From NCBI GenBank assembly GCA_013816405.1, contig JACDEL010000002.1:6220-70219 (forward strand): a DNA stretch of 64,000 nucleotides, read 5' to 3'. A program made the position numbers and the translations under genes. The notes under the pieces were generated by a model that was not told the origin of the DNA, made no database searches, and saw only the letters and a program-made list of their open reading frames with translations. Numbering within the stretch: the first letter of the stretch is position 1; the number at the start of each line of letters is the position of its first letter. This DNA is from Chloroflexota bacterium. GTDB lineage: Bacteria; Chloroflexota; Limnocylindria; QHBO01. Positions 6,163-38,170 of this stretch are shown here, piece by piece.

Positions 6163-6174
6163 CCGACGTCCTCC

Positions 6175-9126: not shown

Positions 9127-9170
9127 AAGGTCACTCCCACCTATTCGAATCTACCTTACCCACCGGCGCA

Positions 9171-18171: not shown

Positions 18172-19757
18172 GACTCCGTGGCAACCACGTCGACGAGCTG
18201 ATCAGCGCATCGCTGACCGGCGACCTGACCGACGCGGAGCGCGTCGAGCTGGACTCCCATCTCGTTCGCTGCGAGACATGTCGCAACACCCTCGCCGCCT
18301 TCACCGCCGAACGCAGCATCCTGTCCGGATTGCCAGTTGCGGAGCCGCCTCGCGACCTCGGGGCGCGGGTTCGCAGTGGGATCGAGTCCGGTCGGCTCGC
18401 CCCGTGGTGGCGCCGGCCGGTGGGTCTGATCGCCATCGGCGCCTCGGCGGCAGTGGTTGCCGCCGCCATCCTCGCCGTCGTTGTCTTCCAGAACCTCGAT
18501 CTGGGCCCGGTTGGGCAAGCGAGCGGATCGCCGAAGGCATCTGTCTCGGCCGCTCCCTCCAGCAGTGCCGTCGCGTCAGTCGCCCCCAGCGTCGGGCCTA
18601 CCACTGCGCCAACCTTCCTGGGACCGGGCGGGCTCGGGTATCTCTCCCTGACGGGCGCACCCCTCGAGGCATTGCGCCTGTCGTTCATCGCCGATGCGAC
18701 TGGCGCCTCGGTGGATGCCGGCACGGTCTCCGGCCCGCCGATTGCCGCCGCCCTCTCGCCTGACGGCCAGTGGCTGGCATACATCACCCAGAAGGGAGAG
18801 ACCGGAGCCAACGAAGTCTGGGCCCTTCACCTGAACGATGGAAAGATCACGCATTTGGGCTGCTCCTCGGCCGCGCCGTTCACGAATCGGCTCGCCTGGT
18901 CGCCCGACAGCCGGTACCTGGCCTACACCCTGGTCGGCGTCGACCTGGGCGCCGATGCGGGTTGCGAGAAGCCGACCGATGGCGCCGACGCTTGGCTGTT
19001 CGATACGTCCACGGGGCAACGATCGAACTTCAGCAACCGGGGTAACGCGTACGCGGCGGACTTCGAGCCTATGAGCGTCGCCGATGTCCCAGTGCTCTGG
19101 GTGAGCATCGCTTCCGAGACCCCCGGGAGTGGCGCATTCGGGGTAGGAGCGGACATCAACGGCGCAGGACTGAGCAACATCTTCCTTCCGCTCTTCTCGC
19201 CGGACGGCAGCCGTGCGATCTTCTGGAGCGGGACGATGACCTCGAATGGCGGATCGTGGCACTTCTCAGTGGGCGGGATGCCGCAACTTTCCGGTGATTT
19301 CCGGGCCGCAGGCCCTGCCTCCCCGTGGGTCGGGACGCCACTCTTCACGGACCTGACGCCGGTTGGCGGTGAGGCGTTCGCATCCGGCGACTTCGCGTGG
19401 GGTCCCGATAACGATCATCTCGCCTTTTGGGATGGTGCCTGGACGGGTACACCGCAGAGTGCTGACGGAACCTATCCGAACCAGGCTGATGCCTACGTCG
19501 GCAGCTTCAGCAGTGGCCTTTTGAGCAGCGCCTCTGCGCTGGCCCTCGTCCGACCCGCTGATGCGTACCTTGTCGCCATCGCGTTCGCCCAGGACGGAAC
19601 CTCGGTCGCGGTAACCCTCGGCCTCCCTTCTGCGGGCATCGGGGATCCCCCATCCGCTCTCCTTCAGATCGTTCCGCTGGACGGCAGCGCGCCGCATGGC
19701 ATCGGCGGAGGCACGGACGCGCCGCCGTGGAACGGGCCGGCGGTCTACGGGTATTGA
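18168..19757 (+). CDS. Zinc-binding anti-sigma factor with TM helix and extracytoplasmic beta-propeller
   Basis: HLVRCETC (HxxxCxxC), one TM helix, S/P-rich linker, SPDG/WSPD repeats; 4-bp overlap with the sigma gene. Confidence 0.88.
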   Translation: MRLRGNHVDELISASLTGDLTDAERVELDSHLVRCETCRNTLAAFTAERSILSGLPVAEPPRDLGARVRSGIESGRLAPWWRRPVGLIAIGASAAVVAAAILAVVVFQNLDLGPVGQASGSPKASVSAAPSSSAVASVAPSVGPTTAPTFLGPGGLGYLSLTGAPLEALRLSFIADATGASVDAGTVSGPPIAAALSPDGQWLAYITQKGETGANEVWALHLNDGKITHLGCSSAAPFTNRLAWSPDSRYLAYTLVGVDLGADAGCEKPTDGADAWLFDTSTGQRSNFSNRGNAYAADFEPMSVADVPVLWVSIASETPGSGAFGVGADINGAGLSNIFLPLFSPDGSRAIFWSGTMTSNGGSWHFSVGGMPQLSGDFRAAGPASPWVGTPLFTDLTPVGGEAFASGDFAWGPDNDHLAFWDGAWTGTPQSADGTYPNQADAYVGSFSSGLLSSASALALVRPADAYLVAIAFAQDGTSVAVTLGLPSAGIGDPPSALLQIVPLDGSAPHGIGGGTDAPPWNGPAVYGY

Positions 19758-19805
19758 CCCGGGGATCGGGTGCGCGGTCAACCCATCGGGCTACACTCGG
19801 GCGCA

Positions 19806-20345
19806 ATGAGCGAACGGCAGATCCTCGACGCGGATGAGCTGCGACGCGCGCTTACCCGGATCGCCCACGAGATCGTCGAGCGCAACGGCGGAACCGATGA
19901 GCTGGTGCTCGTGGGCGTGCGCAGCCGCGGGGTGCCGCTGGCGCGACGGTTAGCGGGCCTGATCGAGCAGCACGAGGGTGTGAGCCTGCCGGTCGGGGCA
20001 CTCGACATCAGCTTCTACCGCGACGACCTGACCAAGGTGGCGCATGCGCCGATCGTCAAGAAGACCCAGGCGATGCCGGAGATCGCCGGGCAGACGGTCG
20101 TCCTGGTCGACGATGTTCTCTTCACCGGCCGCACGGTGCGGGCCGCGCTGGATGCCCTGACGGACCACGGGCGGCCGCGGGCGGTGCGGCTGGCGGTCAT
20201 CATCGACCGCGGCCACCGCGAGCTTCCGATCCGCCCCGACCACGTCGGCAAGAACCTGCCGACCTCGCGCGAGGAGATCGTCCACGTCCGAGTGATGGAG
20301 AACGACGGCAGCGACGAGGTTGTGCTCGAGCGAACTGGCGACTAG
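19806..20345 (+). CDS. pyrR: Pyrimidine operon attenuation protein / uracil PRTase
   Basis: [41 protein letters not shown]. Confidence 0.96.
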
Positions 20346-20731
20346 GCGACCTCGCCGCGCTCTAACGCCTCCCAGTATTCACGCCAGCCGCCGAACGATG
20401 TGATCTCGCGCTGGCCGCCGGTCATCGCCTCGGGAAAGAGGATGCCGTCCACCCAGCGGCCGTCGGAGAGCTCGATCGGTCCTCTGTAGAGTCCAGGCGG
20501 TTCCCCCGCCTCGACCCGGGCCCAGACCTCGTCGGGGAGCCGGTAGATCTCGCCCGGGACCGAGATTCCGCCCCGCTCGGCTCGGTACATCCCCGGATGG
20601 AGGTCGCCGATCGAGAAGATCCGGTACTTCGGGGCGGTTCGGAACTCACCCAGGAACTCAGCGCCGTCCAGGTTGTCGTGCAGCTTCAACCCTCGCATGA
20701 GGGTCCCGTTCACGAAGAGTTCGAGGGCCAT
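20342..20731 (-). CDS. GGCT-fold protein like the allophanate hydrolase C-terminal domain
   Basis: [38 protein letters not shown]. Confidence 0.8.
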
Positions 20732-20800
20732 CTCCCCTCCTTGGCTGAGGCTGCGACCGGGCCCTCGAGGGACCCGGCCGCATTGAACGGGAGAATGCGG

Positions 20801-22420
20801 TCAGGCCGCCCGCTCCTCCTCGGTTGGCGGCGTGGTGACGGCCCTCATGAGGTCCGAGGCCCCGACTCCGCCCTCGCGCATGGCCACGATCCAGATCACG
20901 ACGCCAGCCAGCAGGTAGCCGATCCACACCTCGTTTGGTGCTCGCACGCTGAAGCCGTCAGTGAACTGGAAGATCAACCCGGCCGGGTCGTGCATCAGGC
21001 CGACGGCCGCAAGAACCGCCGCTGCCACGCAATAGAAGATGGCCCGCGAGTAGGCCTTATCAATGATGAAGACGGCGATCGCCCCCAGCATCAACCCCGC
21101 GAGCACGGCGCCGGACCCGAGGATGGCCATCCCCTGGTAGACGACGCCGTTGCCATTCAGCGCGTCCATGATCGACCCGGCGTTCGTGCCGGCAGCGGCC
21201 AGGGAGTTGTCGATCTGGGTCTGCGCCCATTGCGCGATGTTCGGCACCAGGGCCAGCACGATCGCCGGCGCGTGCCGAGCGACCGATGTCTGGAACGCCT
21301 GTGCGCCGATCACCAGCCCAATGAACAGCAGGATCGGGAAGAGGGCCGCACCGGGGATCACGGCAAGGAAGAAGCTGACGAGTCCGGTGAAGCAGATCAG
21401 CGCGATGACGACGCCGGTCGCCAGCGAGTAGCCGATCCGACCACCGACGGCCTTCCAACCGGGATGGCCAATGTAGACGGCCGGCGGGAAGGGGCTTCCC
21501 AGGAAGGACCCGACCACCGCTCCCAGGCCATCGGCCAGCAGGATGGAGCGGAGGCTGTAGTTGTCACCGGCCGCCGAGGCGCTCTCGACGTTGTTCATCC
21601 CCTCAGTGAAGTTGTAGACGCCCAGAGGTATCGCCGTGGCCAGCAGCGGGGCTGCGTCGGAGAGGCCCGAGATCACCTCCGTGCCGAAGACCGGCAGGTG
21701 GATCCCAAATTGCTGGAAGGAGTCACTCACCTGCTGCGGGTCGAGCCCCTGCCAACCAAAGACGGCGTACGACAGCCAGCCGAGCGCCGTGCCGACCACG
21801 ATTGCCGCCAGCCCGCCCGGAATCCCGAACGGAAGGCGCACCCCGCCCGTCCAGGAGAGCAGGATGATGGCGAAAGTGGCGAGGGCGATCCACGCCGCCG
21901 TGAACATCTGGAACGCCGCGGCCATGCTGATGAACGCGATCGAGATGCCGGCCAGCGTGCCGAGCATCGCCGCGCGCGGGGTGTAGGCACGAATGGTGGG
22001 GCCGATGAAGGCGCCGATCAGCACCACCACCCCGATGAAGAAGGCCCATGCCAAGCCCGCCTCGTAGGCCTGCATCACGTCGCCGGTCTTGATGACGACT
22101 GGCAGCATGATCACGAAGGTCACGAAGAAGTAGTGCGGCACGCTCGGGCCATAGGGCATGGCGGCGACCGTGTCGCGGCCTTCCTTCTGGGACAGCCGAT
22201 ACGCGAGATACGCGTACCAGATGTTGCCGAGCGGCAGTGCGATGGCGAGCGCCGGCAGGATGCGCCCGAAGACGATGGTGTCCGGGTCGAGCTTGATGAC
22301 GAACAGCATCAGCCCTGACAGGACCAGCACGTTGAGCAGGACGTTGGTCCCCAGCCCGAAGAAGGCGTTCCAGTCGCCCGGAACCCACAGCTTCGGCTTG
22401 TATTCACTATTGGCTGTCAT
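20801..22420 (-). CDS. NCS2/AzgA-like nucleobase/ureide permease
   Basis: ~14 TM helices; GDWNAFFG, PYGPSVPH, NNVESASAAGD, PPAVYIGHPGWK. Confidence 0.85.
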   Translation of the reverse strand: MTANSEYKPKLWVPGDWNAFFGLGTNVLLNVLVLSGLMLFVIKLDPDTIVFGRILPALAIALPLGNIWYAYLAYRLSQKEGRDTVAAMPYGPSVPHYFFVTFVIMLPVVIKTGDVMQAYEAGLAWAFFIGVVVLIGAFIGPTIRAYTPRAAMLGTLAGISIAFISMAAAFQMFTAAWIALATFAIILLSWTGGVRLPFGIPGGLAAIVVGTALGWLSYAVFGWQGLDPQQVSDSFQQFGIHLPVFGTEVISGLSDAAPLLATAIPLGVYNFTEGMNNVESASAAGDNYSLRSILLADGLGAVVGSFLGSPFPPAVYIGHPGWKAVGGRIGYSLATGVVIALICFTGLVSFFLAVIPGAALFPILLFIGLVIGAQAFQTSVARHAPAIVLALVPNIAQWAQTQIDNSLAAAGTNAGSIMDALNGNGVVYQGMAILGSGAVLAGLMLGAIAVFIIDKAYSRAIFYCVAAAVLAAVGLMHDPAGLIFQFTDGFSVRAPNEVWIGYLLAGVVIWIVAMREGGVGASDLMRAVTTPPTEEERAA

Positions 22421-22512
22421 TGGTTCTCCTCTACCCTCCTTCCCCCTTGACGATCGACGCGGGTCTTACGGCGGATGGCTGACGGCGGCGTCGGGCATCA
22501 GTTCCTCCGGCG

Positions 22513-23202
22513 TCAGGCGGAGGCGCCGGCCATCGCCGGCTTGCCGAGTGCCTCGAGAAAGGCGGCGGAGTCGCTGACCCAGCCGAAGATGCCGCCCTGG
22601 GCCTTGATCATCTCCAGCGCGACGCGCTGGAACTCGGGGAAGTAGGACGCGACCGCGTCAGACAGCACGCAGACGTCGTAGCCGCGATCGTTCGCTTCGC
22701 GCACCGTGGTCTGCACGCAGACCTCGGTCGTCACCCCGCAGGCGATGATTCGCTCGATCCCCTTCATCTTCAGGATGGTGTCGAGGTCGGTCGCGTAGAA
22801 CGCCCCCTTGCCGGGCTTGTCGACGACCGGCTCGCCCTCAATCGGGTAGACCTCCTCGACGATGTCATGGCCGTGCGAGCCGCGGACGAGGAGGCGGCCC
22901 ATCGGTCCTTCGTCGCCGATGTGGATCGAGGGATTGCCACGCTCGTACTTGGCGCGCGGCAGGTCGGAGAGGTCGGGGCGGTGGCCCTCGCGCGTGTGGA
23001 TCACGAAGATTCCAGCCTCGCGGCTGGCCTTGAGAACGCGCTGTGCCGCCGGGAGCGCCGCCAGCAGGAACGACGTGTCGTTGCCGAGGGACTCACCGAA
23101 GCCGCCGGGGTACACGAAGTCGCGCTGGAAGTCGATCATCAGCAGCGCGGTCTTCTTGGGATCGAATTCGAAGTCGTACGGTTCCGCCTTCATGCTCAGC
23201 AT
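22513..23202 (-). CDS. trtA: Isochorismatase-family cysteine hydrolase, triuret hydrolase (TrtA)-like
   Basis: D-K-C triad (IDFQRDF, KPGKGAF, TTEVCV); GGFGESLGND, ASYFPEF and QGGIFGW match TrtA rather than BiuH (GGYVD, TTDVC, GATD, GGVFG) as I recall them. Confidence 0.75.
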   Translation of the reverse strand: MLSMKAEPYDFEFDPKKTALLMIDFQRDFVYPGGFGESLGNDTSFLLAALPAAQRVLKASREAGIFVIHTREGHRPDLSDLPRAKYERGNPSIHIGDEGPMGRLLVRGSHGHDIVEEVYPIEGEPVVDKPGKGAFYATDLDTILKMKGIERIIACGVTTEVCVQTTVREANDRGYDVCVLSDAVASYFPEFQRVALEMIKAQGGIFGWVSDSAAFLEALGKPAMAGASA

Positions 23203-23221
23203 GCGTTGACTTGGACCTCCT

Positions 23222-24205
23222 TCAATTGCCCGATGGACTGGCCGATGCCAATGCGGCGTCGGCGACGATGCGCGTCCCCGACGTGCCCGCGAATGCCTGC
23301 TCCAGGTTGGCCGGCGAGGTGATCAGCACCTCGGACCCGCCTCGCTCCAGGAATGTGATCGCAGCTTCGACCTTGGGGCCCATGCTCCCCTTCGGGAACT
23401 CGCCCTCGGCCAGGTAGCTGCGCGCCTCGGTGACGGAGAGCCGGTCCAGGAAGCGCTGGTCCGGCTGCCGGAAATGAATGGCGACCCGCTCGACCCCCGT
23501 CGACAGGACGAGGAGCGGGATCCCGAGGCTGCTCGCCAGCATTGCCGATGCCAGGTCCTTGTCGATCACCGCCTCCACGCCCCGATAGCCCCCGGGCTCA
23601 ACCTCGACGACCGGGATCCCGCCCCCGCCGGCGGCGATCACCACGAACCCGGACGAGACCAGGGTCCTGATCTGCTGCGCCTCCACGATCCGCAGCGGGT
23701 GGGGGGAGGGCACGATGCGCCGGTAGCCGCGGCCGGAGTCCTCGACCATCGCCCAGCCCTCGTGGCGGCGCTTGGCATCCGCCTCCTCGGCGTTGTAGGA
23801 AGGGCCAATCGGCTTGGTCGGCTCGCCGAAGGCGGGGTCCCTGGGGTCGACCACCACGTGCGTCAGGATGCAGGCCACCGTATCCGTCTGGCCAAGCCGG
23901 CCGAGCTCATTGAGGAGCGCATTGCCCAGGATGTGACCGATCCCGCCCTGTGAGTCGGCGACGCTCATGTCGAGCGAGAGGCGCGGGATCCCGGACGACT
24001 CCCCGATCAGCTCGGAGCGGAGCAGGATGAAGCCGACCTGCGGGCCATTGCCGTGGGTGACGACGACCCGCCAACCATCGGCGACCAGGGCGGCGATGTG
24101 GCCGGCCGTATCGGTTGCATTTGCAAACTGCTCGGCGATCGACCCCTTCTGCCCGTCCAGGATCAGGGCGTTGCCGCCGATGGCGATGACCGCGCTGCGC
24201 TCCAT
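23222..24205 (-). CDS. arcC: Carbamate kinase
   Basis: AIGGNAL, THGNGPQVG, PTKPIG, GGGGIPV, EAVIDKD, GSMGPK. Confidence 0.95.
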   Translation of the reverse strand: MERSAVIAIGGNALILDGQKGSIAEQFANATDTAGHIAALVADGWRVVVTHGNGPQVGFILLRSELIGESSGIPRLSLDMSVADSQGGIGHILGNALLNELGRLGQTDTVACILTHVVVDPRDPAFGEPTKPIGPSYNAEEADAKRRHEGWAMVEDSGRGYRRIVPSPHPLRIVEAQQIRTLVSSGFVVIAAGGGGIPVVEVEPGGYRGVEAVIDKDLASAMLASSLGIPLLVLSTGVERVAIHFRQPDQRFLDRLSVTEARSYLAEGEFPKGSMGPKVEAAITFLERGGSEVLITSPANLEQAFAGTSGTRIVADAALASASPSGN

Positions 24206-25629
24206 CAGGTCGCTCCTGGCACGTGCAGCTGCGCGGCGAGGGCCCGCAGCGCGTCGGCGAAGCAGCTCAGCGGGGCACGGGCAATCCCGGCGCCGATCTG
24301 GCCCACCCCGGGCAGCTTGTGGGCGATCCCGGTGTTGATCACCGGCTGGACGCCGCTCTCGACCACGCGACGCGCATCGATTCCGGTCGGCGAGCCCGCG
24401 AAACCGAGGGGTGGCAGAGCGAAGGCAGGGTTCCGCTCGAGCGTGATGCGATACATCTCACGCGTGTAGTTGAGGGCATCGGCAGCCGTGCCCCCCACGA
24501 AGCGGACGATCGCGGGGGCGGCCGCCATGGCGAAACCGCCGATTCCACAGGTCTCAGTGATGGCGCTGTCGCCGAGGTCGGGGTTCGCGTCCTCCGGCCC
24601 ATAGCCGGGGAAGTAGAGGCCGTCAGGGACCCCGACCGGTGCGGTGTACCAGGCGTTGCCGGTCCCCGACAGACGGACCCCGAAGTCCACGCCGTTGCGG
24701 CTCATGGCGGTCACGACGGTCGAGCCGGGGACCCCGTGCGCGGCATCCAGCGAGGCCTTGCAGGCGGCCATCGACAGGTTGAGGAAGAAATGGTCGTTGC
24801 CGCGCAGGAAGTCGAGGGCGGCCACGGCGTCAACTTCGCGGGCGGTACGCACCAGCGTGGGTGCGAGGCTGCGGACCAGGAGCGAGGTGGCGGCCACGTT
24901 GCGGTTGTGGCCCTCGTCGCCCATCTGCAGCGCCTGGCCAGTGATGCTCTTTAGGTCGATCGGGCCCGTCGCTTCCAGCGCTCGGCTGAGGGTCGGCCCG
25001 AAGGCGTCACGGAACCAGCGCAGCCGCTCGAGCACCGAATCATCGTAGGCACCGAAGCGCAGGACCTTGCCGAGCCCCTCGTTCAGCGTGGCGAAGGACC
25101 GGTTGCCGGCCGTCGTGTTCTCGACCACCACCACCGGCATCGAGGGTGACACGACCCCGGCCATGGGACCGACGGCCCCGTGGTGATGGCATGCGTCGAA
25201 GGCGATCTCGTTGCCCACAGCCAGGCGCTCGGCCTCCTCGGGGGTCGAGGCCCAGCCTTCGAACAGCAAGGCGCCGATGATCGCGCCGCGCATCGGCCCG
25301 CACATCCGTTCCCAACTGATCGGCGGCCCGGAGTGCAGGAGCATCCGGCCCTGCAGACCCGGGATGGCATCTCCTGCGGGCTGCACGTCGATCAGGAATG
25401 GGCTGGCGCCGAGGAGCCGATCGAGCGCTGTCCGATTAGCCGTGGCCACCGCGGCGCCGATCGCGTCGTCCGGATCGTCCTCGAGGCGGGCCACCAGCAT
25501 GCCCAGCTCCGCGTCGGCTCCGGCCGGCGGACGCCAGTCGAGGTTCAGGACGGCCGCGCCTGCCGCGGAGATCGGCTCGGCGAAGCCGGCAAGCCCGATG
25601 TTCAATGCCCGGACGCCATTGGCCAGCAT
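24205..25629 (-). CDS. DUF1116 protein (YahG/YlbE = AllG-like transcarbamylase subunit)
   Basis: LHSGPPISWERMCGPM, NEGLGKVLRFGA, MGDEGHNRN, DLGDSAITE, INTGIAH; ATG overlaps upstream TGA. Confidence 0.9.
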   Translation of the reverse strand: MLANGVRALNIGLAGFAEPISAAGAAVLNLDWRPPAGADAELGMLVARLEDDPDDAIGAAVATANRTALDRLLGASPFLIDVQPAGDAIPGLQGRMLLHSGPPISWERMCGPMRGAIIGALLFEGWASTPEEAERLAVGNEIAFDACHHHGAVGPMAGVVSPSMPVVVVENTTAGNRSFATLNEGLGKVLRFGAYDDSVLERLRWFRDAFGPTLSRALEATGPIDLKSITGQALQMGDEGHNRNVAATSLLVRSLAPTLVRTAREVDAVAALDFLRGNDHFFLNLSMAACKASLDAAHGVPGSTVVTAMSRNGVDFGVRLSGTGNAWYTAPVGVPDGLYFPGYGPEDANPDLGDSAITETCGIGGFAMAAAPAIVRFVGGTAADALNYTREMYRITLERNPAFALPPLGFAGSPTGIDARRVVESGVQPVINTGIAHKLPGVGQIGAGIARAPLSCFADALRALAAQLHVPGAT

Positions 25630-27146
25630 CAGGCGGGCACCCCGCGCATTGCGGTGTGCTGCACGACGAGGCCGGCCAGGCGCGCGGCCCGCGCGTTGCT
25701 GGCGACGAGACGCACCCCGGCGTCGGCCAGGATGGCGCGCTGCCCGACGAAGCCCTGGAGATCGTGTACCGTGCCGCACAGCGAGGCCACAACCGCCAGG
25801 CCGCGGCCGTCACGTCTTGCCGCCTCGCGGGCGGCCTCGATGGCAGGGATCAACGCGCCGGCAGGATCCGGGTGCGACGCGTATCCGAGGACGATGTCGA
25901 GCAGGATCACCGCCACCCGGGAATCGCCGCCCGCCTCCTCGATCTTCTCGCTGCGCAGCCGCGGATCGATCATCGGATGGGGCCGACCAACGGTGTACTC
26001 GTCGTCGCCGAGGTCGATGATCTGCTGCGCCCCGGCGACCTCGGCGCCGAGAAGCCCTTTCAGCACAACCTTGGCCTCGCTCGCCAGCGAGCCGCCGGAG
26101 TAGAGGCCCGCGATCCGGTCCTGGCCGGGCACGAGACCGGCGGCCAGCTCGGCTGGGTTGCCGTGGCCATCCTCGAGCGGCGGCAGCGGACTGCCCAGGA
26201 TCAGCCCCGCGGCCACCTGGGCCGCCTCCTCGAAGGTCGTGCCCGCGTGCGCGCCGGATGCGCGGATCGCCTCCGCATCCCCGCCCAGGAAGTTGACGAC
26301 GACCGGCTTGGTGGCAGTCGAGGCCGCGGCGAGTACCTTCGCGGCGACCGAGGGCGCCGGCGGCTTGGAGACCAGCACCACCACCTCTGTTCCCTGATCA
26401 GCCACCAGGCGCTCGAGGGCTGCCAGCATCATCAGGCCTCCGACCTCCTCGTGCAGGTCGCGACCACCGACCCCGATGGCCTGCGATACGCCCGCCCCGA
26501 ATGCATCGAGCAGACAGGTGACCTGCTGCAGGCCGGTGCCACTCGCGCCGACGAGCCCGACCCCGCCGCGCCGGACCTCGTTGGCAAAGCCCAGGGGCAC
26601 GCCGTCCAGGATGGCAGTCCCGCAATCAGGCCCCATCACCAGCAACCCCTTGAGAACGCCCAGCTGCTTGAGCTCGATCTCATCCTCGATCGAGACGTTG
26701 TCGCTGAACAGGAAGACATGCAGTCCCCGTTTCAGGGCCTTCATCGCCTCGGCAGTCGCGTATGTGCCGGGAGTTGAGATGAGGGCGACGTTCGCACCCG
26801 GAAGATCGGCGAGGGCTTCGGAGATCGTTGTGGGCACGAAACGCTGCCCTTCCCCCGCTGCCTCCGCAGCCGCGCCGCGCATCAGGGTCGCAGCGCGCTC
26901 GAACGCAGCGTCAGCAGCGGTGTCGTCGTCGGCCGCCAGGGCCACCGCCATGTCGTTCGGGCCCGCCGTAGGATCGAGGCCCTCGCTCAGGCCGGCCTCG
27001 GCGACGATCGCCAGGTTGGCGGGAGTGCACATCACCAGGCCGGCACGGATGACGCCGGGGAACCGCTCGACCTCGGCGGCGATGCGCATCAGCTCCACCG
27101 AGTCTCGATAGGCGTTGCGGAAGACCCGCTGCCGGACGACGCTCAC
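25629..27146 (-). CDS. fdrA: FdrA/YahF (AllF-like) acyl-CoA-synthetase-fold protein
   Basis: YRDSVELM, FSDNV, MGPDCGTA, GASGTGLQ, GVGGRDL, GRPHPMIDP. Confidence 0.92.
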   Translation of the reverse strand: MSVVRQRVFRNAYRDSVELMRIAAEVERFPGVIRAGLVMCTPANLAIVAEAGLSEGLDPTAGPNDMAVALAADDDTAADAAFERAATLMRGAAAEAAGEGQRFVPTTISEALADLPGANVALISTPGTYATAEAMKALKRGLHVFLFSDNVSIEDEIELKQLGVLKGLLVMGPDCGTAILDGVPLGFANEVRRGGVGLVGASGTGLQQVTCLLDAFGAGVSQAIGVGGRDLHEEVGGLMMLAALERLVADQGTEVVVLVSKPPAPSVAAKVLAAASTATKPVVVNFLGGDAEAIRASGAHAGTTFEEAAQVAAGLILGSPLPPLEDGHGNPAELAAGLVPGQDRIAGLYSGGSLASEAKVVLKGLLGAEVAGAQQIIDLGDDEYTVGRPHPMIDPRLRSEKIEEAGGDSRVAVILLDIVLGYASHPDPAGALIPAIEAAREAARRDGRGLAVVASLCGTVHDLQGFVGQRAILADAGVRLVASNARAARLAGLVVQHTAMRGVPA

Positions 27147-28123
27147 GTGGCCACGTTGCCTTCATCGCCGCACGCCCGGAGCCGGCCGGCCACGCCCGGA
27201 GCGGATGACTGGATGCCGACCAAAAGGCCCACCAGCAGGTCCGCTCCTGACGTGGCACCCCACGCCATCGCCGCCGTCACCGCACGGCCCAATTCCGCCT
27301 CGGGCCCGGTGAGGACTGCCACCGCCGCGGCATGAACATGCTCGGAGAATTCGAGTCGACCAGCGTGGAGGAGGTAGCTCTCTGCGACCGAGGTCGTCGA
27401 TCCCCTGGCGTTCCGCGCCACTCCGGCTGCGAAGACTGGAGCCAGTGGATGGTCGGTGACGGCCAGGCCCGCCGCGAGGCCCACCAGCAGGTCGTCACCC
27501 GACGGCGTGGCACCGGGGCCGAGCCCGATCAGCGGGAGGGCGGCGGAGATGGCGCGCTCGTCTTGTCCCTCGGCCAGGGCTTCCACGACCTTGGCGAGCG
27601 ATCTGGCCGAAGCTCGTCCCAGCGATCCGACGCTCGTACGACCATCCATGAGCCCCACCAGCAAAGGTCCCAGTCCGACTGGGGGCGCCTGTTCGGCAGC
27701 GAGTTTCAGGGCCTGCTCGGCGCGCTCGCTCCGCCCGGCCATGGTCAGCCCACGGACCACTGGCATCGCGGGTGACCAGCTGGCGGCTGCGGCCAGGAAG
27801 ACGACCATCGAGGCCCCGGGCACGCGGAGCGCGGTGCCGTCGCACTGGGCTCGCATCCCGAGGACCAGGCCGATCTGGTCGAAGGCGATCGGCGGATCCA
27901 CCAGGATCCCGTTCGGGACGCCTCCCATCCCCTCATGCGCCACGGTCAGCAGGCCTTCGCCCCACCGGATGTTGACGACCGATCGATAGACACCCTCGAT
28001 GGTCCCCTCGCCACCCGGCATTCGCAGGCGGCTTCCAATGGACTGACTGATCCGGGTTGCGGCGAATCGTCGCAGCGGGAACGCCCCTGCTGCGGCCGTG
28101 GTCATCGGCTCGGGAGCCTTCAT
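27143..28123 (-). CDS. DUF2877 protein (YahE/YlbF = AllH-like)
   Basis: LIGLGPGATPSGDDLLVG, TTSVAESYL, GATSGADLLVG. Confidence 0.9.
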   Translation of the reverse strand: MKAPEPMTTAAAGAFPLRRFAATRISQSIGSRLRMPGGEGTIEGVYRSVVNIRWGEGLLTVAHEGMGGVPNGILVDPPIAFDQIGLVLGMRAQCDGTALRVPGASMVVFLAAAASWSPAMPVVRGLTMAGRSERAEQALKLAAEQAPPVGLGPLLVGLMDGRTSVGSLGRASARSLAKVVEALAEGQDERAISAALPLIGLGPGATPSGDDLLVGLAAGLAVTDHPLAPVFAAGVARNARGSTTSVAESYLLHAGRLEFSEHVHAAAVAVLTGPEAELGRAVTAAMAWGATSGADLLVGLLVGIQSSAPGVAGRLRACGDEGNVAT

Positions 28124-28171
28124 CGGAGGGCCATGCTAGGGTCACCGCGCAGCCCAGTCATTGGCAATCTG

Positions 28172-28208
28172 TGTCACTCACGGCCCCTTGGCCTGTGAGA
28201 ATATGACA
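28172..28208. promoter_or_regulatory. Inverted repeat in the divergent allH-like/PucR intergenic region (candidate operator)
   Basis: TGTCA-CTCAC ... GTGAG-N4-TGACA. Confidence 0.35.
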
Positions 28209-28212
28209 GGCG

Positions 28213-29796
28213 ATGCGTGACTCCTCCATCACCCTTCGTCGGGCCCTCGACCTGCCCCCCCTGCAACACGCCCGCGTCCTGGCGGGGAACGCCGGGATCG
28301 AGCACCGAGTGCGCCACGTCAACGTGATGGAAGTACCCGACATCCTGCCGTGGGTGCAACCCGACGAGCTGCTGTTGACGACGGCATACCCCCTCCGCGA
28401 CGACCACGCGGCCCTGGGAACGCTCGTCCCCGAGCTTGCCGCCAAGGGCCTCGCCGGCATCGCGATCAAGCCCGATCGCTACCTCGGGAAGGTCCCGACG
28501 GCAATGCTCATCGCCGCCGACGCCTGCAGCTTTCCCCTGATCGAGCTGCCGCCCGAGAGCAGCTTCAACGAGATCATCAGCGCGGTGCTGAGCGTGATCC
28601 TCAACGAGCAGTCGCTGCGCCTGCAGCGCGCCGCCGAGATCCACGACCGATTCACACAGATCGTGCTGGGCGGTGGCGGGCTGCGCGAGATCGCCATGAC
28701 CCTGGCCCAACTCGTCGAGCGGCAGGTGCTGATCGTGGATCAGCATGGCGAGGTACTCACCGGGTCGGGAGAGCTCGACATCGAACGGCTCACCGACGAA
28801 GTGATGATGGCGGCACACGGGGACGGCGCGGAAGCCGGGCGATGGGTGTCCGTCAAGATCGGCGGCAGGGAGGCCACCTTGCAACCGATCATGGTCGACG
28901 GCGAGCCCTACGGCGCGATCGCGGCTCTCGCGCCGGCCGAGACGATGAGCACCGATGATCTGGAGGCCCTCCAGTTCGCGGCCACCGTGGCGGCGCTGCG
29001 TCAGGTGCAGGCTCGCGCCCTGGTCGAGGGCGACCGGCGCTTTCAGGCCGTGTGCCTGGAGGAGCTGGTGAGCGGTCATCTCACCGACCGGAGCGTCCTC
29101 TCCGAGCGCGCCGAGGCCTTCGGCTGGGACCTGTCGCTCCCCCGCGCCGTCCTTCTGGCGCAGGCCGGATCGTCGAGCGGTGGGGATGCCGACACCGTGC
29201 GGTCATTGGCCGACGCAGCACGGGTGGCCCTTGGCGGTGCCGCGATCGTCTGGGAGCGGAGCACCCAGGCCGCCGCCCTTGTGGCCCCGAGAGGGGCCGA
29301 TCCGGCGGCGCTGCTGGACGCCGCCGACAGCCTTCGGCGAGAGGCAGCCCGCCGCCTGCCGACGATGCCGGTCAGCATCGGCATCGGTCGGGTTCGGGGT
29401 GACCCGCTCGAGCTGCGAGAGAGTCACGCCGAGGCGCGTCGCGCGCTCGAGGTCGGTCGTTGGCGCAGCCCCGGCGAGGTCGTGACCTTCGAGAGGATGG
29501 GGCTGGACCGGCTGTTGGCTAGCGTCTCCGCCCCCGAGCTCTCCGCCTTCCGCCACACGATGATCGAGCCGCTCGCCGCCTACGATCGGGCCCATCGGTC
29601 GAACCTGCTCGACACCCTCGAGGCGTACGTCGCGACCCGCAATGCAGCCGAGGCGGCACGCCGCCTGTACGTCCACTACAACACGGTGCGCAGCCGGCTG
29701 GCGCGCATCGAGGAGCTCATCGGACCGTTCCTGGCCGACACCGAGCGCCTGACCGGCCTCGCGGTCGCGCTGCATATCCATCGCCGCGGGCACTGA
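28213..29796 (+). CDS. PucR/CdaR family transcriptional regulator
   Basis: VRHVNVMEVPDILPWV...ELLLTTAY PucR domain; C-terminal HTH AARRLYVHYNTVRSRL. Confidence 0.92.
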   Translation: MRDSSITLRRALDLPPLQHARVLAGNAGIEHRVRHVNVMEVPDILPWVQPDELLLTTAYPLRDDHAALGTLVPELAAKGLAGIAIKPDRYLGKVPTAMLIAADACSFPLIELPPESSFNEIISAVLSVILNEQSLRLQRAAEIHDRFTQIVLGGGGLREIAMTLAQLVERQVLIVDQHGEVLTGSGELDIERLTDEVMMAAHGDGAEAGRWVSVKIGGREATLQPIMVDGEPYGAIAALAPAETMSTDDLEALQFAATVAALRQVQARALVEGDRRFQAVCLEELVSGHLTDRSVLSERAEAFGWDLSLPRAVLLAQAGSSSGGDADTVRSLADAARVALGGAAIVWERSTQAAALVAPRGADPAALLDAADSLRREAARRLPTMPVSIGIGRVRGDPLELRESHAEARRALEVGRWRSPGEVVTFERMGLDRLLASVSAPELSAFRHTMIEPLAAYDRAHRSNLLDTLEAYVATRNAAEAARRLYVHYNTVRSRLARIEELIGPFLADTERLTGLAVALHIHRRGH

Positions 29797-29825
29797 GAGT
29801 AGCGCCGTGGCTATACTGCCTGAAA

Positions 29826-29927
29826 CCCTTTAAGGACGGTCCTGAGAGGCCGCCAAGGAGCGATCGGATGCTTGACGTCGCGAACGGTGACACCACTCGC
29901 CATCGGCCCATTGCCGGTGGCGTTGTC
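29826..29927 (+). promoter_or_regulatory. PyrR-binding loop plus SD-occluding hairpin in the pyrB leader
   Basis: CCCTTTAA-GGAC-GGTCCTGAGAGGCC-GCCAAGG matches the PyrR site consensus; hairpin CGCCATCGGC/GCCGGTGGCG at 29898-29922; TATACT at 29812. Confidence 0.8.
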
Positions 29928-30872
29928 GTGTCCCGGCCCGATCCCGACGTACCCCCTGCGACCGCCTGGCCGCATCGGCACCTGCTCGACGTCGATCAGC
30001 TCACCCGCGGTGAGATGGAGGCCTGCCTCGACCTTGCCGTCGAGATGCGCGAGCGGCGCCTGCGGCGCGAGACCCTCGACCTGCTGCGCGGCGAGGTGGT
30101 CGGGCTGGCCTTCTGCGAGCCATCGACCCGGACGCGCGTCAGCTTCGAGCTGGCCGCTGAGGCGCTCGGGGCGCAGGTGGTCGAGCTCCCCATCGACGTC
30201 AGCAGCGTCACGAAGGGCGAGTCGTTGGTCGACACGCTGCGCACGCTCGAGCGTACCGGCGTGACGACCGTAATTCTGCGGCATTCGATGAGCGGTGCTC
30301 CCTACCTTGCCGCGCGGAGTGTGCCGGTCCGGATCGTGAATGCCGGGGACGGGTCGCACGCTCACCCGACGCAGGCTCTGTTGGATGCCCTGACCCTGTG
30401 TGATGCCCTCGGATCACTCGAAGGCAGGAAGATCGCGATCGTGGGCGATATCGGTCATTCGCGGGTTGCCCGCTCGAACATCCACGCGCTGACAGCGCTG
30501 GGGGCGTCGGTCTGCCTGGCGGGACCTCCGGCCTGGGTGCGGGGCTTCGAAGCCTGGCCGGGCGTCACGGTCGCCGACCGCCTCCAGGACGCGCTTGCCG
30601 GTGCCGATGCGGTCATGACGCTCCGCATCCAGCTCGAGCGCGAGGCTGGCGGCGGCGTTCCTTCACTGCGCGAGTACACCGCCCGCTGGGGCCTGGATGC
30701 GGAGCGCCTTGCGGTCGCCCAGACTGGCGCTCCGGTGCTGCACCCCGGCCCGACCAACGAAGGAGTCGAGATCACAGCCGACCTGGCAGCCAGCGAGCGA
30801 AGCTTGATCGGTGCGCAGGTGGTGAACGGCGTGGCGATGCGAATGGCAGTGCTGGCGCTCCTCACCCAATGA
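29928..30872 (+). CDS. pyrB: Aspartate carbamoyltransferase catalytic subunit
   Basis: EPSTRTRVSFE, NAGDGSHAHPTQALLD, HSRVARS, LHPGP; GTG start chosen after the attenuator (ORF track start 29868). Confidence 0.95.
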   Translation: MSRPDPDVPPATAWPHRHLLDVDQLTRGEMEACLDLAVEMRERRLRRETLDLLRGEVVGLAFCEPSTRTRVSFELAAEALGAQVVELPIDVSSVTKGESLVDTLRTLERTGVTTVILRHSMSGAPYLAARSVPVRIVNAGDGSHAHPTQALLDALTLCDALGSLEGRKIAIVGDIGHSRVARSNIHALTALGASVCLAGPPAWVRGFEAWPGVTVADRLQDALAGADAVMTLRIQLEREAGGGVPSLREYTARWGLDAERLAVAQTGAPVLHPGPTNEGVEITADLAASERSLIGAQVVNGVAMRMAVLALLTQ

Positions 30873-32257
30873 GCTCCTTCGGGTCGCTCGGCGACCCGGC
30901 GGCGACCTTCGTGCTGACGGGGGTGCGGGTCATCGACCCCTGGAACGATGAGGATGCCGTTCGGGACATCGCTGTCGTCGAGGGCCAGCTGGTCGATCCA
31001 GCCAAGGCTCCATCCGATGCACCGCGCCTGGACGCCCGCGGCCTGGTCGTCGGGCCTGGCCTGTGCGACCTGCACGTGCACCTGCGCGAGCCGGGGATGG
31101 AACGAGCCGAGACGGTCGAGAGCGGCGCCCGCGCGGCGGCTCACGGCGGCTTCACCACTGTGTGCGCCATGCCGAATACCGACCCACCGCTCGACGAGCC
31201 GGCACGGGTGGCGATGGTTCTCGAACGCGCCCGGAACCGAGCGTGCCGGGTGCGGGTCATCGCCGCCGCAACGCGGGCCCGGGAGGGAGAGCGAATCACC
31301 GAGATCGGCGAGCTGGCCCGAATGGGGATCGCCGGCGTCAGCGACGATGGCTCGGTTGTGGCGTCGGCGCGGGTGGCGCGCGGGCTGCTGGCCTACCTGG
31401 CCCCGCTGGGGCTGCCTCTGATCGAGCACGCCGAAGATCCCGCACTCTCGGCGGGTTCAGTGATGCGCGCCGGTCCGACCGCCACGCGACTGGGGCTCGC
31501 CGGCTGGCCGGCCAGCGCGGAGCTTTCGATCGTGGACCGGGACATCGCCCTGGCCGAGGAGACCGGCGGCTGGGTCCACTTCACGCACCTCTCCACGGCG
31601 GGCGGGCTGGATGCCATCCGTCGCGCCAAGGAGCGGGGCATCCGGGTGACCTGCGACGTCACCCCGCATCACCTCGCCCTGACCGACGCGTGGGTGGCGG
31701 GCTGGCGTGGCTTTGCATGGGAAGAGCCGACCGGCGTCGCCGCGGATCCGTTCGGAGCTCCGTTGGATGCCACGCTCGCATACGACCCAGCCTGCCGGGT
31801 CAACCCGCCGCTCGCCCCACGCGCCGAGGCGCTCGCCCTCCTGGCCGGCGTCGCGGACGGCACGATCGACTCCATCGCCACGGATCATGCGCCGCATCCG
31901 CTCGAGCGGAAGCGAGTCGAATTCGGCGCAGCGGCGCCGGGGATGATCGGGCTCGAGACCGCCCTGTCGCTGGGCCTGGCGGCGGTCGAGGTAGGCGGCC
32001 TGGAGCTGGTGCGCCTGCTCGGAGCGCTCAGCACCCGCCCGGCCGAACTCATCGGCGAGGTCCGGACCCTCCAGCCAGGATCGCTCGCCGACCTGGTCGT
32101 CTTCGATCCCGTCGCCCGTTGGCGGGTCGAGGCATCCGGCCTGGCGTCGGCCTCGTCGAACACGCCGCTCCTCGGAGTGGAGCTGCCCGGCGTGGTCCGA
32201 ATGACGGTGGCGGGCGGGCGAATCACGTACCGCGACGGACTCGCCGCCGTCGACTGA
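30869..32257 (+). CDS. pyrC: Dihydroorotase
   Basis: DLHVHLREPG, AMPNT, TPHHL, NPPL, ATDHAPH, SNTP. Confidence 0.95.
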   Translation: MSSFGSLGDPAATFVLTGVRVIDPWNDEDAVRDIAVVEGQLVDPAKAPSDAPRLDARGLVVGPGLCDLHVHLREPGMERAETVESGARAAAHGGFTTVCAMPNTDPPLDEPARVAMVLERARNRACRVRVIAAATRAREGERITEIGELARMGIAGVSDDGSVVASARVARGLLAYLAPLGLPLIEHAEDPALSAGSVMRAGPTATRLGLAGWPASAELSIVDRDIALAEETGGWVHFTHLSTAGGLDAIRRAKERGIRVTCDVTPHHLALTDAWVAGWRGFAWEEPTGVAADPFGAPLDATLAYDPACRVNPPLAPRAEALALLAGVADGTIDSIATDHAPHPLERKRVEFGAAAPGMIGLETALSLGLAAVEVGGLELVRLLGALSTRPAELIGEVRTLQPGSLADLVVFDPVARWRVEASGLASASSNTPLLGVELPGVVRMTVAGGRITYRDGLAAVD

Positions 32258-37612: not shown

Positions 37613-38170
37613 CTACCCCAGGCGTTTGATCGCTTCATCGGTGGTGATGACATCCGCGAACTCGCCATGCACGCTTGCGAGCGCGGTCCGATGGACGAGC
37701 TCCGCCGGAAAGACTTCACCATCGGGACCCTCCCGGTCGTACGTAGAGCAGGCATCTCCGACGTACCAGGTCTCAAACCCGAGATTGCCAGACATCCGAA
37801 CCGTGGTCGAACCGCAGTGGTCGGTGGTGAACGCGGCGATCACCACGGTCGTCGCCCCCGTACTGCGCAGCCGTTCCTCGAGATCGGTGCCGATGAACGC
37901 GGAATTCACCTCCTTGGTGAGCACGAGCTCCCCTTCCTGCGGCACGACCTCATCCATGAACTCGAACCCGGGGTTGCCTTCGTGAAGCATCGGCCAGTCC
38001 GGATCCGTCTCGCGATGCCGAACGTGGATGATGGGTGCTTCGGCTGTGCGCCACGCTTGCAGTAGCCGGGCGACGTTCTCTTCAGCGCTGGGATCGTTGT
38101 TCCGCTGTCCGAACGCGGGGTCATCCCACGCATTCTGAACATCGACAACGAGCAAAGTGGGCTTCGCGAT
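37613..38170 (-). CDS. Isochorismatase-family cysteine hydrolase
   Basis: LVVDVQN, KEVNSAFIGTDL, TTDHCGSTT; probable ATC start at 38170 (TTG at 38155). Confidence 0.88.
   Translation of the reverse strand: MAKPTLLVVDVQNAWDDPAFGQRNNDPSAEENVARLLQAWRTAEAPIIHVRHRETDPDWPMLHEGNPGFEFMDEVVPQEGELVLTKEVNSAFIGTDLEERLRSTGATTVVIAAFTTDHCGSTTVRMSGNLGFETWYVGDACSTYDREGPDGEVFPAELVHRTALASVHGEFADVITTDEAIKRLG

Follow-up and report, generated by a model that had tools for sequence, protein, structure and literature searches.

Fertilizer and urate oxidation are sources of triuret (carbonyldiurea), and cyanuric acid derives from triazines and disinfectants. The hydrolytic breakdown of triuret has been described as the TrtA-(TrtB)-BiuH-AtzF route of Herbaspirillum sp. 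BH-1 and Rhizobium, in which TrtA converts triuret to carboxybiuret, a compound that slowly decays to biuret with a half-life of about 20 min (PMC7948467). TrtA shares its product, 1-carboxybiuret, with cyanuric acid hydrolase (PMC7948467, PMC6219798). The decay of carboxybiuret yields biuret and that of allophanate yields urea, which are dead ends for cells able to use neither biuret nor urea (PMC6219798). AllFGH of Escherichia coli K-12 is the oxamate (oxamic) carbamoyltransferase and catalyzes the reaction oxalurate + phosphate <-> oxamate + carbamoyl phosphate (PMC11326118). On single contigs of comammox Nitrospira and ammonia-oxidizing archaea, trtA and biuH are collocated with allFGHK (PMC12625717). 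Here, we analyze a locus in a stretch of 64,000 nucleotides from a Chloroflexota bacterium of the class Limnocylindria (assembly GCA_013816405.1, contig JACDEL010000002.1, positions 6,220 to 70,219; hereafter the window) in which a gene for a TrtA-type hydrolase is combined with genes for an AllFGH-like complex and a carbamate kinase.

A TrtA-Type Hydrolase Gene Joined to an AllFGH-Like Module

The cassette in the window is a real, conserved and uncharacterized unit, in which an AllFGH-plus-kinase module is joined to a known hydrolase. We propose that the operon serves a self-contained, energy-conserving catabolism of triuret, in the course of which carboxybiuret would be phosphorolyzed and ATP would be made; we give this interpretation somewhat less than an even chance of being correct. 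A preliminary description of the window had already read the locus as an ATP-yielding triuret pathway. The TrtA type of the hydrolase, the missing partner enzymes and the conservation of the cassette, together with a second carboxybiuret-forming enzyme (AtzD) found beside related complexes, speak for that reading; the link that it drew to the Yah complexes of E. coli was not supported. All eight genes of the run described there (DUF2877, FdrA, DUF1116, carbamate kinase, cysteine hydrolase, permease and AH_C protein, co-oriented and divergent from a PucR gene) were recovered at the following coordinates:

20342-20731, minus strand: stand-alone AH_C/GGACT protein, 129 amino acids (PF21986, 6e-33; PF06094, 1e-10)
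20801-22420, minus strand: permease/membrane protein, 539 amino acids (no Pfam or NCBIfam match)
22513-23202, minus strand: TrtA-type isochorismatase-like cysteine hydrolase, 229 amino acids (PF00857, 2e-45)
23222-24205, minus strand: carbamate kinase, 327 amino acids (NF009007, 373.5 bits, cut-off 266)
24205-25629, minus strand: AllG-like subunit (DUF1116), 474 amino acids (PF06545, 5e-96)
25629-27146, minus strand: AllF-like subunit (FdrA), 505 amino acids (NF004760, 477 bits, cut-off 433; PF00549; PF02629)
27143-28123, minus strand: AllH-like subunit (DUF2877), 326 amino acids (PF11392, 2e-22)
28124-28212, no strand: divergent spacer of 89 nucleotides between the allH-like gene and pucR, the presumed control region (from the coordinates)
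28213-29796, plus strand: PucR-family regulator, 527 amino acids (PF07905, 5.6e-33; PF17853; PF13556)

The seven minus-strand genes run from position 28123 down to 20342 in frames with a high G+C content at third codon positions. AllH and AllF overlap by 4 nucleotides, AllF and AllG as well as AllG and the carbamate kinase gene by 1 nucleotide each, and the remaining gaps measure 19, 92, and 69 nucleotides, a spacing that fits a single operon. The FdrA, DUF1116 and DUF2877 subunits are thus encoded together by overlapping genes, directly with the carbamate kinase. The length of AllG was set at 474 amino acids by a 100% identical protein (P0122), and the 524-residue open reading frame (ORF) represents an upstream extension. 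A scan of positions 19600-30000 found no promoter-like site, and the spacer at 28124-28212 contains no sigma-70-type consensus; five terminator-like sites were found in the same region against 2.4 expected, none of them at a gene end. Pfam and NCBIfam scans of the cluster detected no BiuH, AtzD, AtzF amidase or allantoin enzyme, as the preliminary description had noted.

The window cassette shares with AllFGH/AllK of E. coli K-12 the same three subunit families with a carbamate kinase following in one operon, and presumably also the logic by which a ureide and phosphate yield carbamoyl phosphate and then ATP. The gene orders differ (H-F-G-K in the window, F-G-H-K in K-12), and unlike in K-12 the vicinity contains neither allECD nor any other allantoin gene, AllD being missing from the whole genome; the neighbors are instead the TrtA-type hydrolase, the AH_C protein and the permease. 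With the route of Herbaspirillum and Rhizobium the window has the first enzyme in common, with identical key residues (PMC7948467), whereas BiuH, TrtB, and AtzF are absent and the AllFGH-like complex plus kinase stand in their place. The comammox and archaeal contigs, unlike the window, additionally possess biuH and atzF, and their genes have been read as separate triuret/biuret and oxalurate pathways (PMC12625717). The YahEFG-YahI-YahJ cluster of K-12 resembles the window in its paralogous three-subunit module and carbamate kinase; it differs in possessing the amidohydrolase YahJ and in lacking both TrtA and AH_C, and YahG is 47% identical to the window AllG.

The Hydrolase Is of the TrtA Type

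The closest solved relative of the window hydrolase is TrtA from Herbaspirillum (6XIX; E 2e-81), ahead of the biuret hydrolase structures from Rhodococcus (2e-69) and Rhizobium (8e-66). Since the alignment with 6XIX is gapless over residues 1-213, the numbering of TrtA can be applied directly. TrtA uses the catalytic triad D24/K129/C162 and binds its substrate with E72, K132, and Q202; at six positions its consensus (F35, N41, A134, E160, Y187, and I205) is distinct from that of BiuH, which has Y, Y, S, D, T, and V (PMC7948467). The window hydrolase possesses all three triad residues, keeps E72, K132, and Q202 as well as, at the level of sequence, the V157-T158 pair of the cis-peptide, and reads FNAEYI at the six discriminating positions (6/6 TrtA-type, 0/6 BiuH-type). 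The motifs GGFGESLGND, TTEVC, ASYFP, and GGIFG named in the preliminary description were all found in its translation.

We assessed the six-residue rule on a set that is independent of PMC7948467, namely eight Burkholderiales-order genomes with two family members about 2.3 kb apart; it held in all eight trtA-biuH gene pairs, one gene reading FNAEYI and its neighbor YYSDTV. The window hydrolase reached 268.6 bits with the BiuH equivalog model NF050097, below the cut-off of 370. In a tree of 55 hydrolases (rooted on BiuH, quick search, with Shimodaira-Hasegawa-like approximate likelihood ratio test [SH-aLRT] support only), all FNAEYI-type proteins including the window hydrolase grouped together with a support of 100. 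Nine TrtAs linked to BiuH formed one clade (support 96) that is nested within the AllFGH-linked TrtAs. Among 35 full-length hydrolases (33 from the loci described below, the window protein and that of E. coli CFT073), 29 read FNAEYI, four FNSEYI, one FNMEYI, and one FNSHFI; the exchange A134S is neutral in TrtA, whose activity on other tested compounds does not exceed 0.3% of that on triuret (PMC7948467, Table 2 for the activities). By its residues and its place in the tree, the window hydrolase is of the TrtA type, in keeping with its earlier assignment, and a predicted triuret hydrolase.

One Burkholderiales-order stretch (L099; G123:C3:84000-103999) carries both cassette types: its AllFGH-linked TrtA is 68% and its BiuH-linked TrtA 56% identical to the window hydrolase, a third family member reads YLAEAI, and BiuH lies just beyond. 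The window itself contains a second, distant isochorismatase-family gene at about 37733-38011 on the minus strand (G000:C12:43952-44230), which matches positions 99-191 of the BiuH model with 58.8 bits.

Follow-Up Enzymes Are Missing from the Genome

The genome to which the window belongs comprises 2.5 Mb on 102 contigs and is 95.1% complete. The preliminary description had left open whether biuH or atzF lie elsewhere in it; neither gene was found. No BiuH scored over the cut-off, the sole match at the BiuH/TrtA level being the window hydrolase itself. The best match in the search for AtzF, and the one amidase that it returned, was a generic enzyme on another contig (197 bits, about 30% identical to the AtzF proteins of other cassettes). 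Searches of the same genome recovered no urease, no urea carboxylase over the cut-off and no Ldh_2/AllD protein; AtzD gave no match either, and the control for this family likewise matched nothing anywhere. The genome contains a single copy of AllG. Since BiuH, AtzF, urease, urea carboxylase, and AllD are all missing, biuret, urea, and allantoin-derived oxalurate are each left without an enzyme, and a lone TrtA would make little sense in a bacterium that can use neither biuret nor urea.

The Cassette Is Conserved across Phyla

To survey the neighborhoods of the AllG gene, we took the best 80 of 560 confirmed matches from an alignment-based search (51-88% identical to the window AllG) and annotated the loci by calling ORFs crudely and comparing them with the window proteins by BLAST, counting a TrtA-type gene when at least 60% of the query was covered. 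A TrtA-type gene lies beside AllF/AllG in 35 of these 80 loci (37 at 50% coverage), where the gene set of the window recurs. In the 35 loci, the partners are the carbamate kinase (33), AllF (31), the permease (27), AH_C (25), and PucR (17). Two loci (L027 and L028) stem from a metagenome-assembled genome (MAG) flagged as unpublished (G016); without both, the count is 33 of 78, and none of our conclusions depends on them. Carriers belong to the Limnocylindria and other Chloroflexota, the Actinomycetota (with isolates of Terrimesophilobacter and Actinotalea among them), the Dormibacterota, the Methylomirabilota, one Clostridia MAG, and the Alpha-, Beta-, and Gammaproteobacteria. Several MAGs labeled as Verrucomicrobiia, Steroidobacteraceae, Eisenbacteria, and the like carry Limnocylindria-like sequence, and their labels were not counted as phyla. 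In at least six phyla, the genes of the cassette have been kept together, an arrangement far beyond chance.

BiuH scored over the cut-off in one of the 36 cassette genomes (one of 35 without G016). For the following counts, the 36 genomes are the window genome and 35 carriers, with G016 excluded. AtzF was found over the cut-off in eight, within about 3 kb of the TrtA-type gene in seven of them and in the cassette locus L021 in the eighth (G012). A Ldh_2 family gene is present in 15 of the 36 genomes and missing from 21; for the urease alpha subunit, 10 genomes scored over the cut-off, 17 had any match and 19 had none. An amidase near the cassette in L011 was considered as a further member and rejected: it aligns with AtzF over about 185 residues only (36-37% identity) and is unrelated.

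Within the class of the window (201 genomes), nine genomes, including that of the window, possess a TrtA-type gene and none has BiuH; within its genus, three of 10 genomes possess the TrtA-type gene, so the cassette is accessory. In a sample of 301 genomes from the Burkholderiales order, to which one proteobacterial carrier belongs, 41 have a family member and 23 have BiuH. A TrtA-type gene lies within 7 kb of AllG in 12 of these genomes, three of which were already in the locus set, and eight of the 12 lack BiuH.

A cassette of this kind is also present in E. coli. In strain CFT073, positions 4528189-4535402 encode hydrolase, DUF2877, FdrA, DUF1116, arcC, AH_C, an NCS1 permease, and a LysR regulator, in this order. 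The cassette proper (4529438-4535402; also in Nissle 1917) shares six functions with that of the window, and its hydrolase is 64% identical and reads FNAEYI; it differs in its permease of the NCS1 "cytosine permease" type, in LysR replacing PucR, and in the hydrolase gene coming first. It represents a third paralogue, separate from AllFGH and YahEFG. Of 5426 complete E. coli genomes, 1555 contain the stretch from hydrolase to AH_C (5965 bases) with a coverage of at least 80%; Nissle 1917 is one of them. Of the 1630 matching places, 127 are on plasmids, and an IS2-family element interrupts one of the chromosomal copies; the cassette is therefore mobile within the species.

The AllFGH-Like Complex and the Carbamate Kinase

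The window AllG is 55% identical to the DUF1116 protein of CFT073, 52% to K-12 AllG (YlbE), and 47% to YahG. AllF is 40-42% identical to the three E. coli paralogues (40% for K-12 AllF), and AllH has weak identity to AllH, YahE, and the CFT073 counterpart. The carbamate kinase is 51% identical to the kinase of the CFT073 cassette, 48% to YahI, and 38% to AllK; it passed NF009007 and scored 341.8 bits with the arcC equivalog TIGR00746, just under the cut-off of 358.25. None of the oxalurate-supplying allantoin genes (allECD, ureidoglycolate dehydrogenase) is in the cluster. A SucD-type "GHAG" phosphohistidine motif was considered in AllF and dropped, since it reads AHAG in the window protein only and is absent from the three E. 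coli paralogues.

In a tree of 84 AllG sequences (quick search, SH-aLRT support only), the neighborhood types were strongly clustered. The TrtA-linked sequences fell into four clades and two isolated sequences (L042 and L037). The clades are an actinobacterial one, one of Limnocylindria and Methylomirabilota, a proteobacterial one that includes E. coli CFT073, and an Anaerolineae sequence grouping with the proteobacterial ones. Most sequences with other or short neighborhoods inside these clades stem from contigs that end before the position of the hydrolase. The AtzD-linked sequences form one clade (support 100) beside K-12 YahG, which sits on a long branch, and those with a NUDIX neighbor form a small clade. 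The preliminary description had suggested that the locus would provide a substrate for the orphan Yah-type complexes; this suggestion was not supported, since YahG lies elsewhere in the AllG tree and the yah cluster has neither TrtA nor AH_C. K-12 AllG, to our knowledge the only characterized member, stands outside all 83 other sequences on a long branch and yet is 52% identical to the window AllG, so that sequence does not assign the substrate.

Sixteen AllG sequences lie beside a three-subunit molybdenum hydroxylase of the xanthine dehydrogenase type and a PF04199 cyclase-family hydrolase (the loci include L035, L040, L041, L049, L051, L059, L066, L077, L079, L080, and L087), sometimes together with a thiolase, an acyl-CoA synthetase or an amidase. 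This clade probably represents another route from an N-heterocycle to a ureide that feeds a similar complex.

The AH_C Protein and the Permease

Work by Fan et al. in 2013 (J Biol Chem) is said to have identified the C-terminal domain of allophanate hydrolase as the decarboxylase of N-carboxycarbamate. This role is also given in PMC5770610, in whose account the N- and C-domains of allophanate hydrolase catalyze sequential steps. The 129-residue window protein matches PF21986 over positions 2-122 of 123 and allophanate hydrolase models at their C-terminal part only (439-563); the amidase-signature N-terminal domain is absent from it. It is 50% identical to the AH_C protein of the CFT073 cassette. 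Among its 120 best longer homologues, 60 are permease-AH_C proteins, in which AH_C forms the C-terminus of a permease of the same family as in the window, 29 are tandem AH_C-AH_C proteins, and 11 are fusions with isochorismatase-like hydrolases, eight in the order AH_C-hydrolase and three in the reverse order; nine of the 11 are TrtA-type by the six residues. Two more AH_C fusions are to NCS1 permeases. The fusions to TrtA-type hydrolases and to permeases indicate that AH_C is functionally part of the cassette and not of an allophanate hydrolase. We regard it as a candidate N-carboxy decarboxylase or docking module, the latter role being possible because AH_C is frequently tethered to permeases and occurs in tandem. 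A predicted complex of two TrtA copies with AH_C scored 0.00, below the mark.

The tandem proteins (P0242-P0270; 29 of the 120) measure about 265 amino acids, and further AH_C fusions involve cupin, VOC/glyoxalase, and SnoaL/NTF2-like domains. Among solved structures, the window AH_C comes closest to a 137-residue stand-alone protein (5C5Z; 2e-27), which was deposited as "Glutamyl-tRNA amidotransferase" and looks misnamed.

The permease has no Pfam match up to an E-value of 0.1 (PF00860 was not reached) and no NCBIfam match. Profile comparison of its family with NCS2 permeases by hhalign was too weak (probability 10.6%), and a fold search was therefore used instead. Its AlphaFold model (predicted local distance difference test 77.6, predicted template modeling score 0.76) found BicA, SVCT1, UraA, UapA, and SLC26 as the best Foldseek matches, with E-values of about 1e-6 and TM-scores of 0.39-0.64. 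From this model, we predict a UraA-type fold with a 7+7 inverted repeat (NCS2/SulP-like); the protein is presumed to be the importer of the cassette substrate. In a protein atlas, the nearest clusters are unnamed and the nearest named one, Xan_ur_permease at 0.89, serves as a lead only. Although without a Pfam or NCBIfam model, the family is common, with representatives in 29 of the 80 loci and atlas clusters of 75-187 members.

Cyanuric Acid Hydrolase Genes beside the Complex in Gut Clostridia

Four loci from gut Clostridia (L045, L050, L058, and L067; Flavonifractor, Hungatella, [Clostridium] asparagiforme, and a Clostridiales isolate) contain an operon with the order PucR, AtzD-family gene, membrane protein of about 418 residues and 4-helix type, NCS2 xanthine-type permease, and AllH-AllF-AllG. 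After AllG, three of the loci have a carbamate kinase gene, which was not found next to AllG in L045. The AtzD-family protein reaches 536 bits with the equivalog model for cyanuric acid amidohydrolase (NF052395, cut-off 360), and among solved relatives it matches the cyanuric acid enzyme of Moorella (3.6e-147) ahead of barbiturase (6e-95). Neither a BiuH/TrtA-family gene nor AtzF scored over the cut-off in the four genomes, AtzE not being part of this search, and the operons contain no AH_C. This gene content suggests an anaerobic, ATP-yielding use of cyanuric acid, or of a natural triazine-like compound, by gut bacteria. The clostridial operons joining AtzD, complex and kinase, like the AH_C fusions to TrtA-type hydrolases and permease, are new here.

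Locus L058 additionally encodes a cytosine-deaminase-like amidohydrolase. Orthology of this C. asparagiforme gene to YahJ was considered and is not claimed, the identity being 25% only.

A Proposed Pathway and Its Alternatives

From the gene context, we infer that the complex phosphorolyzes a biuret-series ureide, and in the same manner we infer every enzymatic step of the scheme, above all the phosphorolysis and its substrate. The permease would import the substrate, and the TrtA-type hydrolase would convert triuret to 1-carboxybiuret, releasing one ammonia. The AllFGH-like three-subunit carbamoyltransferase would then transfer the terminal carbamoyl group of carboxybiuret to phosphate, giving carbamoyl phosphate and allophanate, and carbamate kinase would use carbamoyl phosphate and ADP to form ATP, ammonia, and CO2. 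Allophanate would be removed by a full allophanate hydrolase in the proteobacterial version and in the window organism by the stand-alone AH_C protein or by a second phosphorolysis; its removal would pull the reversible carbamoyl transfer forward. Our search of the open literature, which did not extend to subscription journals and supplements, found no printed proposal of a phosphorolysis of biuret-series ureides, and the excerpts of PMC12625717 and PMC12623156 contain none.

Several considerations favor carboxybiuret as the compound that is phosphorolyzed. It keeps the terminal carboxylate of oxalurate; its direct use would avoid the slow decay to biuret; and it would explain the AtzD operons, which lack AH_C. 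Moreover, AtzF in cassettes without BiuH or urea carboxylase needs a source of allophanate, and carboxybiuret phosphorolysis would supply it to the BiuH-less proteobacterial cassettes. The loci for TrtA and for cyanuric acid hydrolase converge, via 1-carboxybiuret, on the same complex and kinase, which supports this choice of substrate.

A number of observations weigh against the scheme. The window AllG is about as close to K-12 AllG (52%) as to the other paralogues, and judged by AllG alone oxalurate would be a compatible substrate. For AllFGH itself, activity was measured with carbamoyl phosphate and oxamate only, and other substrates are not discussed in the excerpts of PMC11326118. A histidine common to all eight AtzF C-domain sequences of our alignment is a leucine in the stand-alone AH_C type, so that the chemistry of AH_C may differ from that of the AtzF domain. 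We know of no enzyme assay for any AllFGH homologue besides that of E. coli. Being the closest among 560 matches, the 80 loci form a biased sample, and most cassette genomes are MAGs whose completeness is not given, which makes single absences weak evidence but not the overall pattern of absence. BiuH is also present in four of the 12 Burkholderiales-order cassette genomes and on the comammox contigs (PMC12625717), from which it follows that the cassette is not always a replacement for BiuH.

The TrtA-AH_C fusions, known in both orders and with nine TrtA-type examples, would favor a reversed order of events. AH_C, in the role of TrtB, would decarboxylate the product of TrtA to biuret, and the complex would act as a biuret phosphorylase (a urea carbamoyltransferase running in reverse) that yields carbamoyl phosphate and urea, the latter being exported or used only where a urease is present. 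Such an order would parallel the sequential action of the N- and C-domains of allophanate hydrolase (PMC5770610) and the hydrolytic pathway, which likewise decarboxylates carboxybiuret first, via TrtB (PMC7948467, PMC12625717), and urea would be an amide acceptor as oxamate is. We nevertheless consider this order unlikely. If AH_C led to biuret or urea, the urea would be unusable in the window genome, which like the isolates G026 and G028 has neither urease nor urea carboxylase, and half of the nitrogen would be lost. No allophanate would be made, although it is needed by cassettes that have a full AtzF but lack BiuH; AH_C is missing from the clostridial AtzD operons; and biuret lacks the carboxylate that oxalurate has.

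The locus might instead combine two unrelated pathways: a genuine carbamoyltransferase for oxamate (oxalurate), together with its kinase, and a triuret hydrolase with a product that decays or is processed elsewhere. This is the published reading for comammox Nitrospira and ammonia-oxidizing archaea (PMC12625717), and it agrees with the Pfam and NCBIfam placement of the subunits in the AllF, AllG, and AllH families, with the 52% identity of AllG to its K-12 counterpart, and with the presence of BiuH in some genomes. It is, however, improbable in view of the tight operon with translationally coupled genes that is kept across at least six phyla, the AH_C fusions that link hydrolase, permease, and cassette, and the position of K-12 AllG on a long branch outside all 83 other sequences. 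Ldh_2/AllD is moreover absent from the window genome and from 21 of the 36 cassette genomes, and the cluster has no allantoin genes. TrtA without BiuH or urease would lead to dead-end biuret (PMC6219798), yet 35 of the 36 cassette genomes lack BiuH. A substrate other than triuret, that is, another ureide with a terminal carbamoyl-amide such as a product of purine or pyrimidine oxidation, would have the TrtA-like enzyme and AH_C deamidate and decarboxylate it and the complex phosphorolyze the remaining ureido group. The excerpts of PMC7948467 state that no natural source of triuret is known; PucR regulators are of the purine type and the permeases of the nucleobase type (UraA fold here, NCS1 in E. 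coli); and related AllFGH clades adjoin molybdenum hydroxylases and cyclase-family hydrolases, from which the family clearly handles several ureides. This explanation, too, has little probability, because every first- and second-shell residue of the "ultraspecific" TrtA recurs across the cassette clade (61-90% identity), the characterized TrtA type is nested within that clade, and no other compound tested with TrtA reached more than 0.3% of the activity on triuret (PMC7948467, Table 2).

Extending the proposed carboxybiuret phosphorolysis beyond the window, AllFGH-type complexes may form a broad family of ureide phosphorylases, with clades tuned to the product of the neighboring ring-opening or deamidating enzyme. 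1-Carboxybiuret would be the shared substrate that two unrelated enzymes, TrtA and cyanuric acid hydrolase, deliver to a "carboxybiuret phosphorylase," and the AllFGH-linked cassette would be the older and wider setting of TrtA, with TrtA-BiuH-AtzF as a later offshoot. We offer this broader picture tentatively and think it rather more doubtful than probable.

Genomic Setting of the Cassette

The cassette with its pucR gene lies exactly between pyrR (19770-20345, plus strand; NF003549, 249 bits, cut-off 138), which overlaps the end of the AH_C gene by 4 nucleotides, and pyrB-pyrC (29868-32257, plus strand), which encode aspartate carbamoyltransferase and dihydroorotase. With these flanks, a module predicted to produce carbamoyl phosphate is placed inside an operon that consumes it. 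Loci L008-L010 share the order PyrC-PyrB-PucR-AllH, and L011-L013 as well as L031 have a pyrR-like gene on the PucR side. The G+C content of the window ranges from 60 to 72%; it is 0.60-0.64 at positions 4001-10000 and 0.67-0.72 in the rest.

Implications

TrtA genes are now taken as markers of the BiuH/AtzF route and AllFGH genes as markers of allantoin use. If the proposed pathway is correct, it would provide a function for a very common set of "DUF" genes, among them the cassette that about 29% of the complete E. coli genomes carry, and a second substrate class for a type of transcarbamylase whose genes were identified only in 2024. Urea-chain compounds would then be fermentable for ATP, beyond hydrolysis alone. 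A carboxybiuret phosphorylase route would yield ATP while sparing an unstable intermediate from ending as biuret, and it would be at work in soil Chloroflexi and actinobacteria, in gut Clostridia, and in about 29% of the strains of E. coli.

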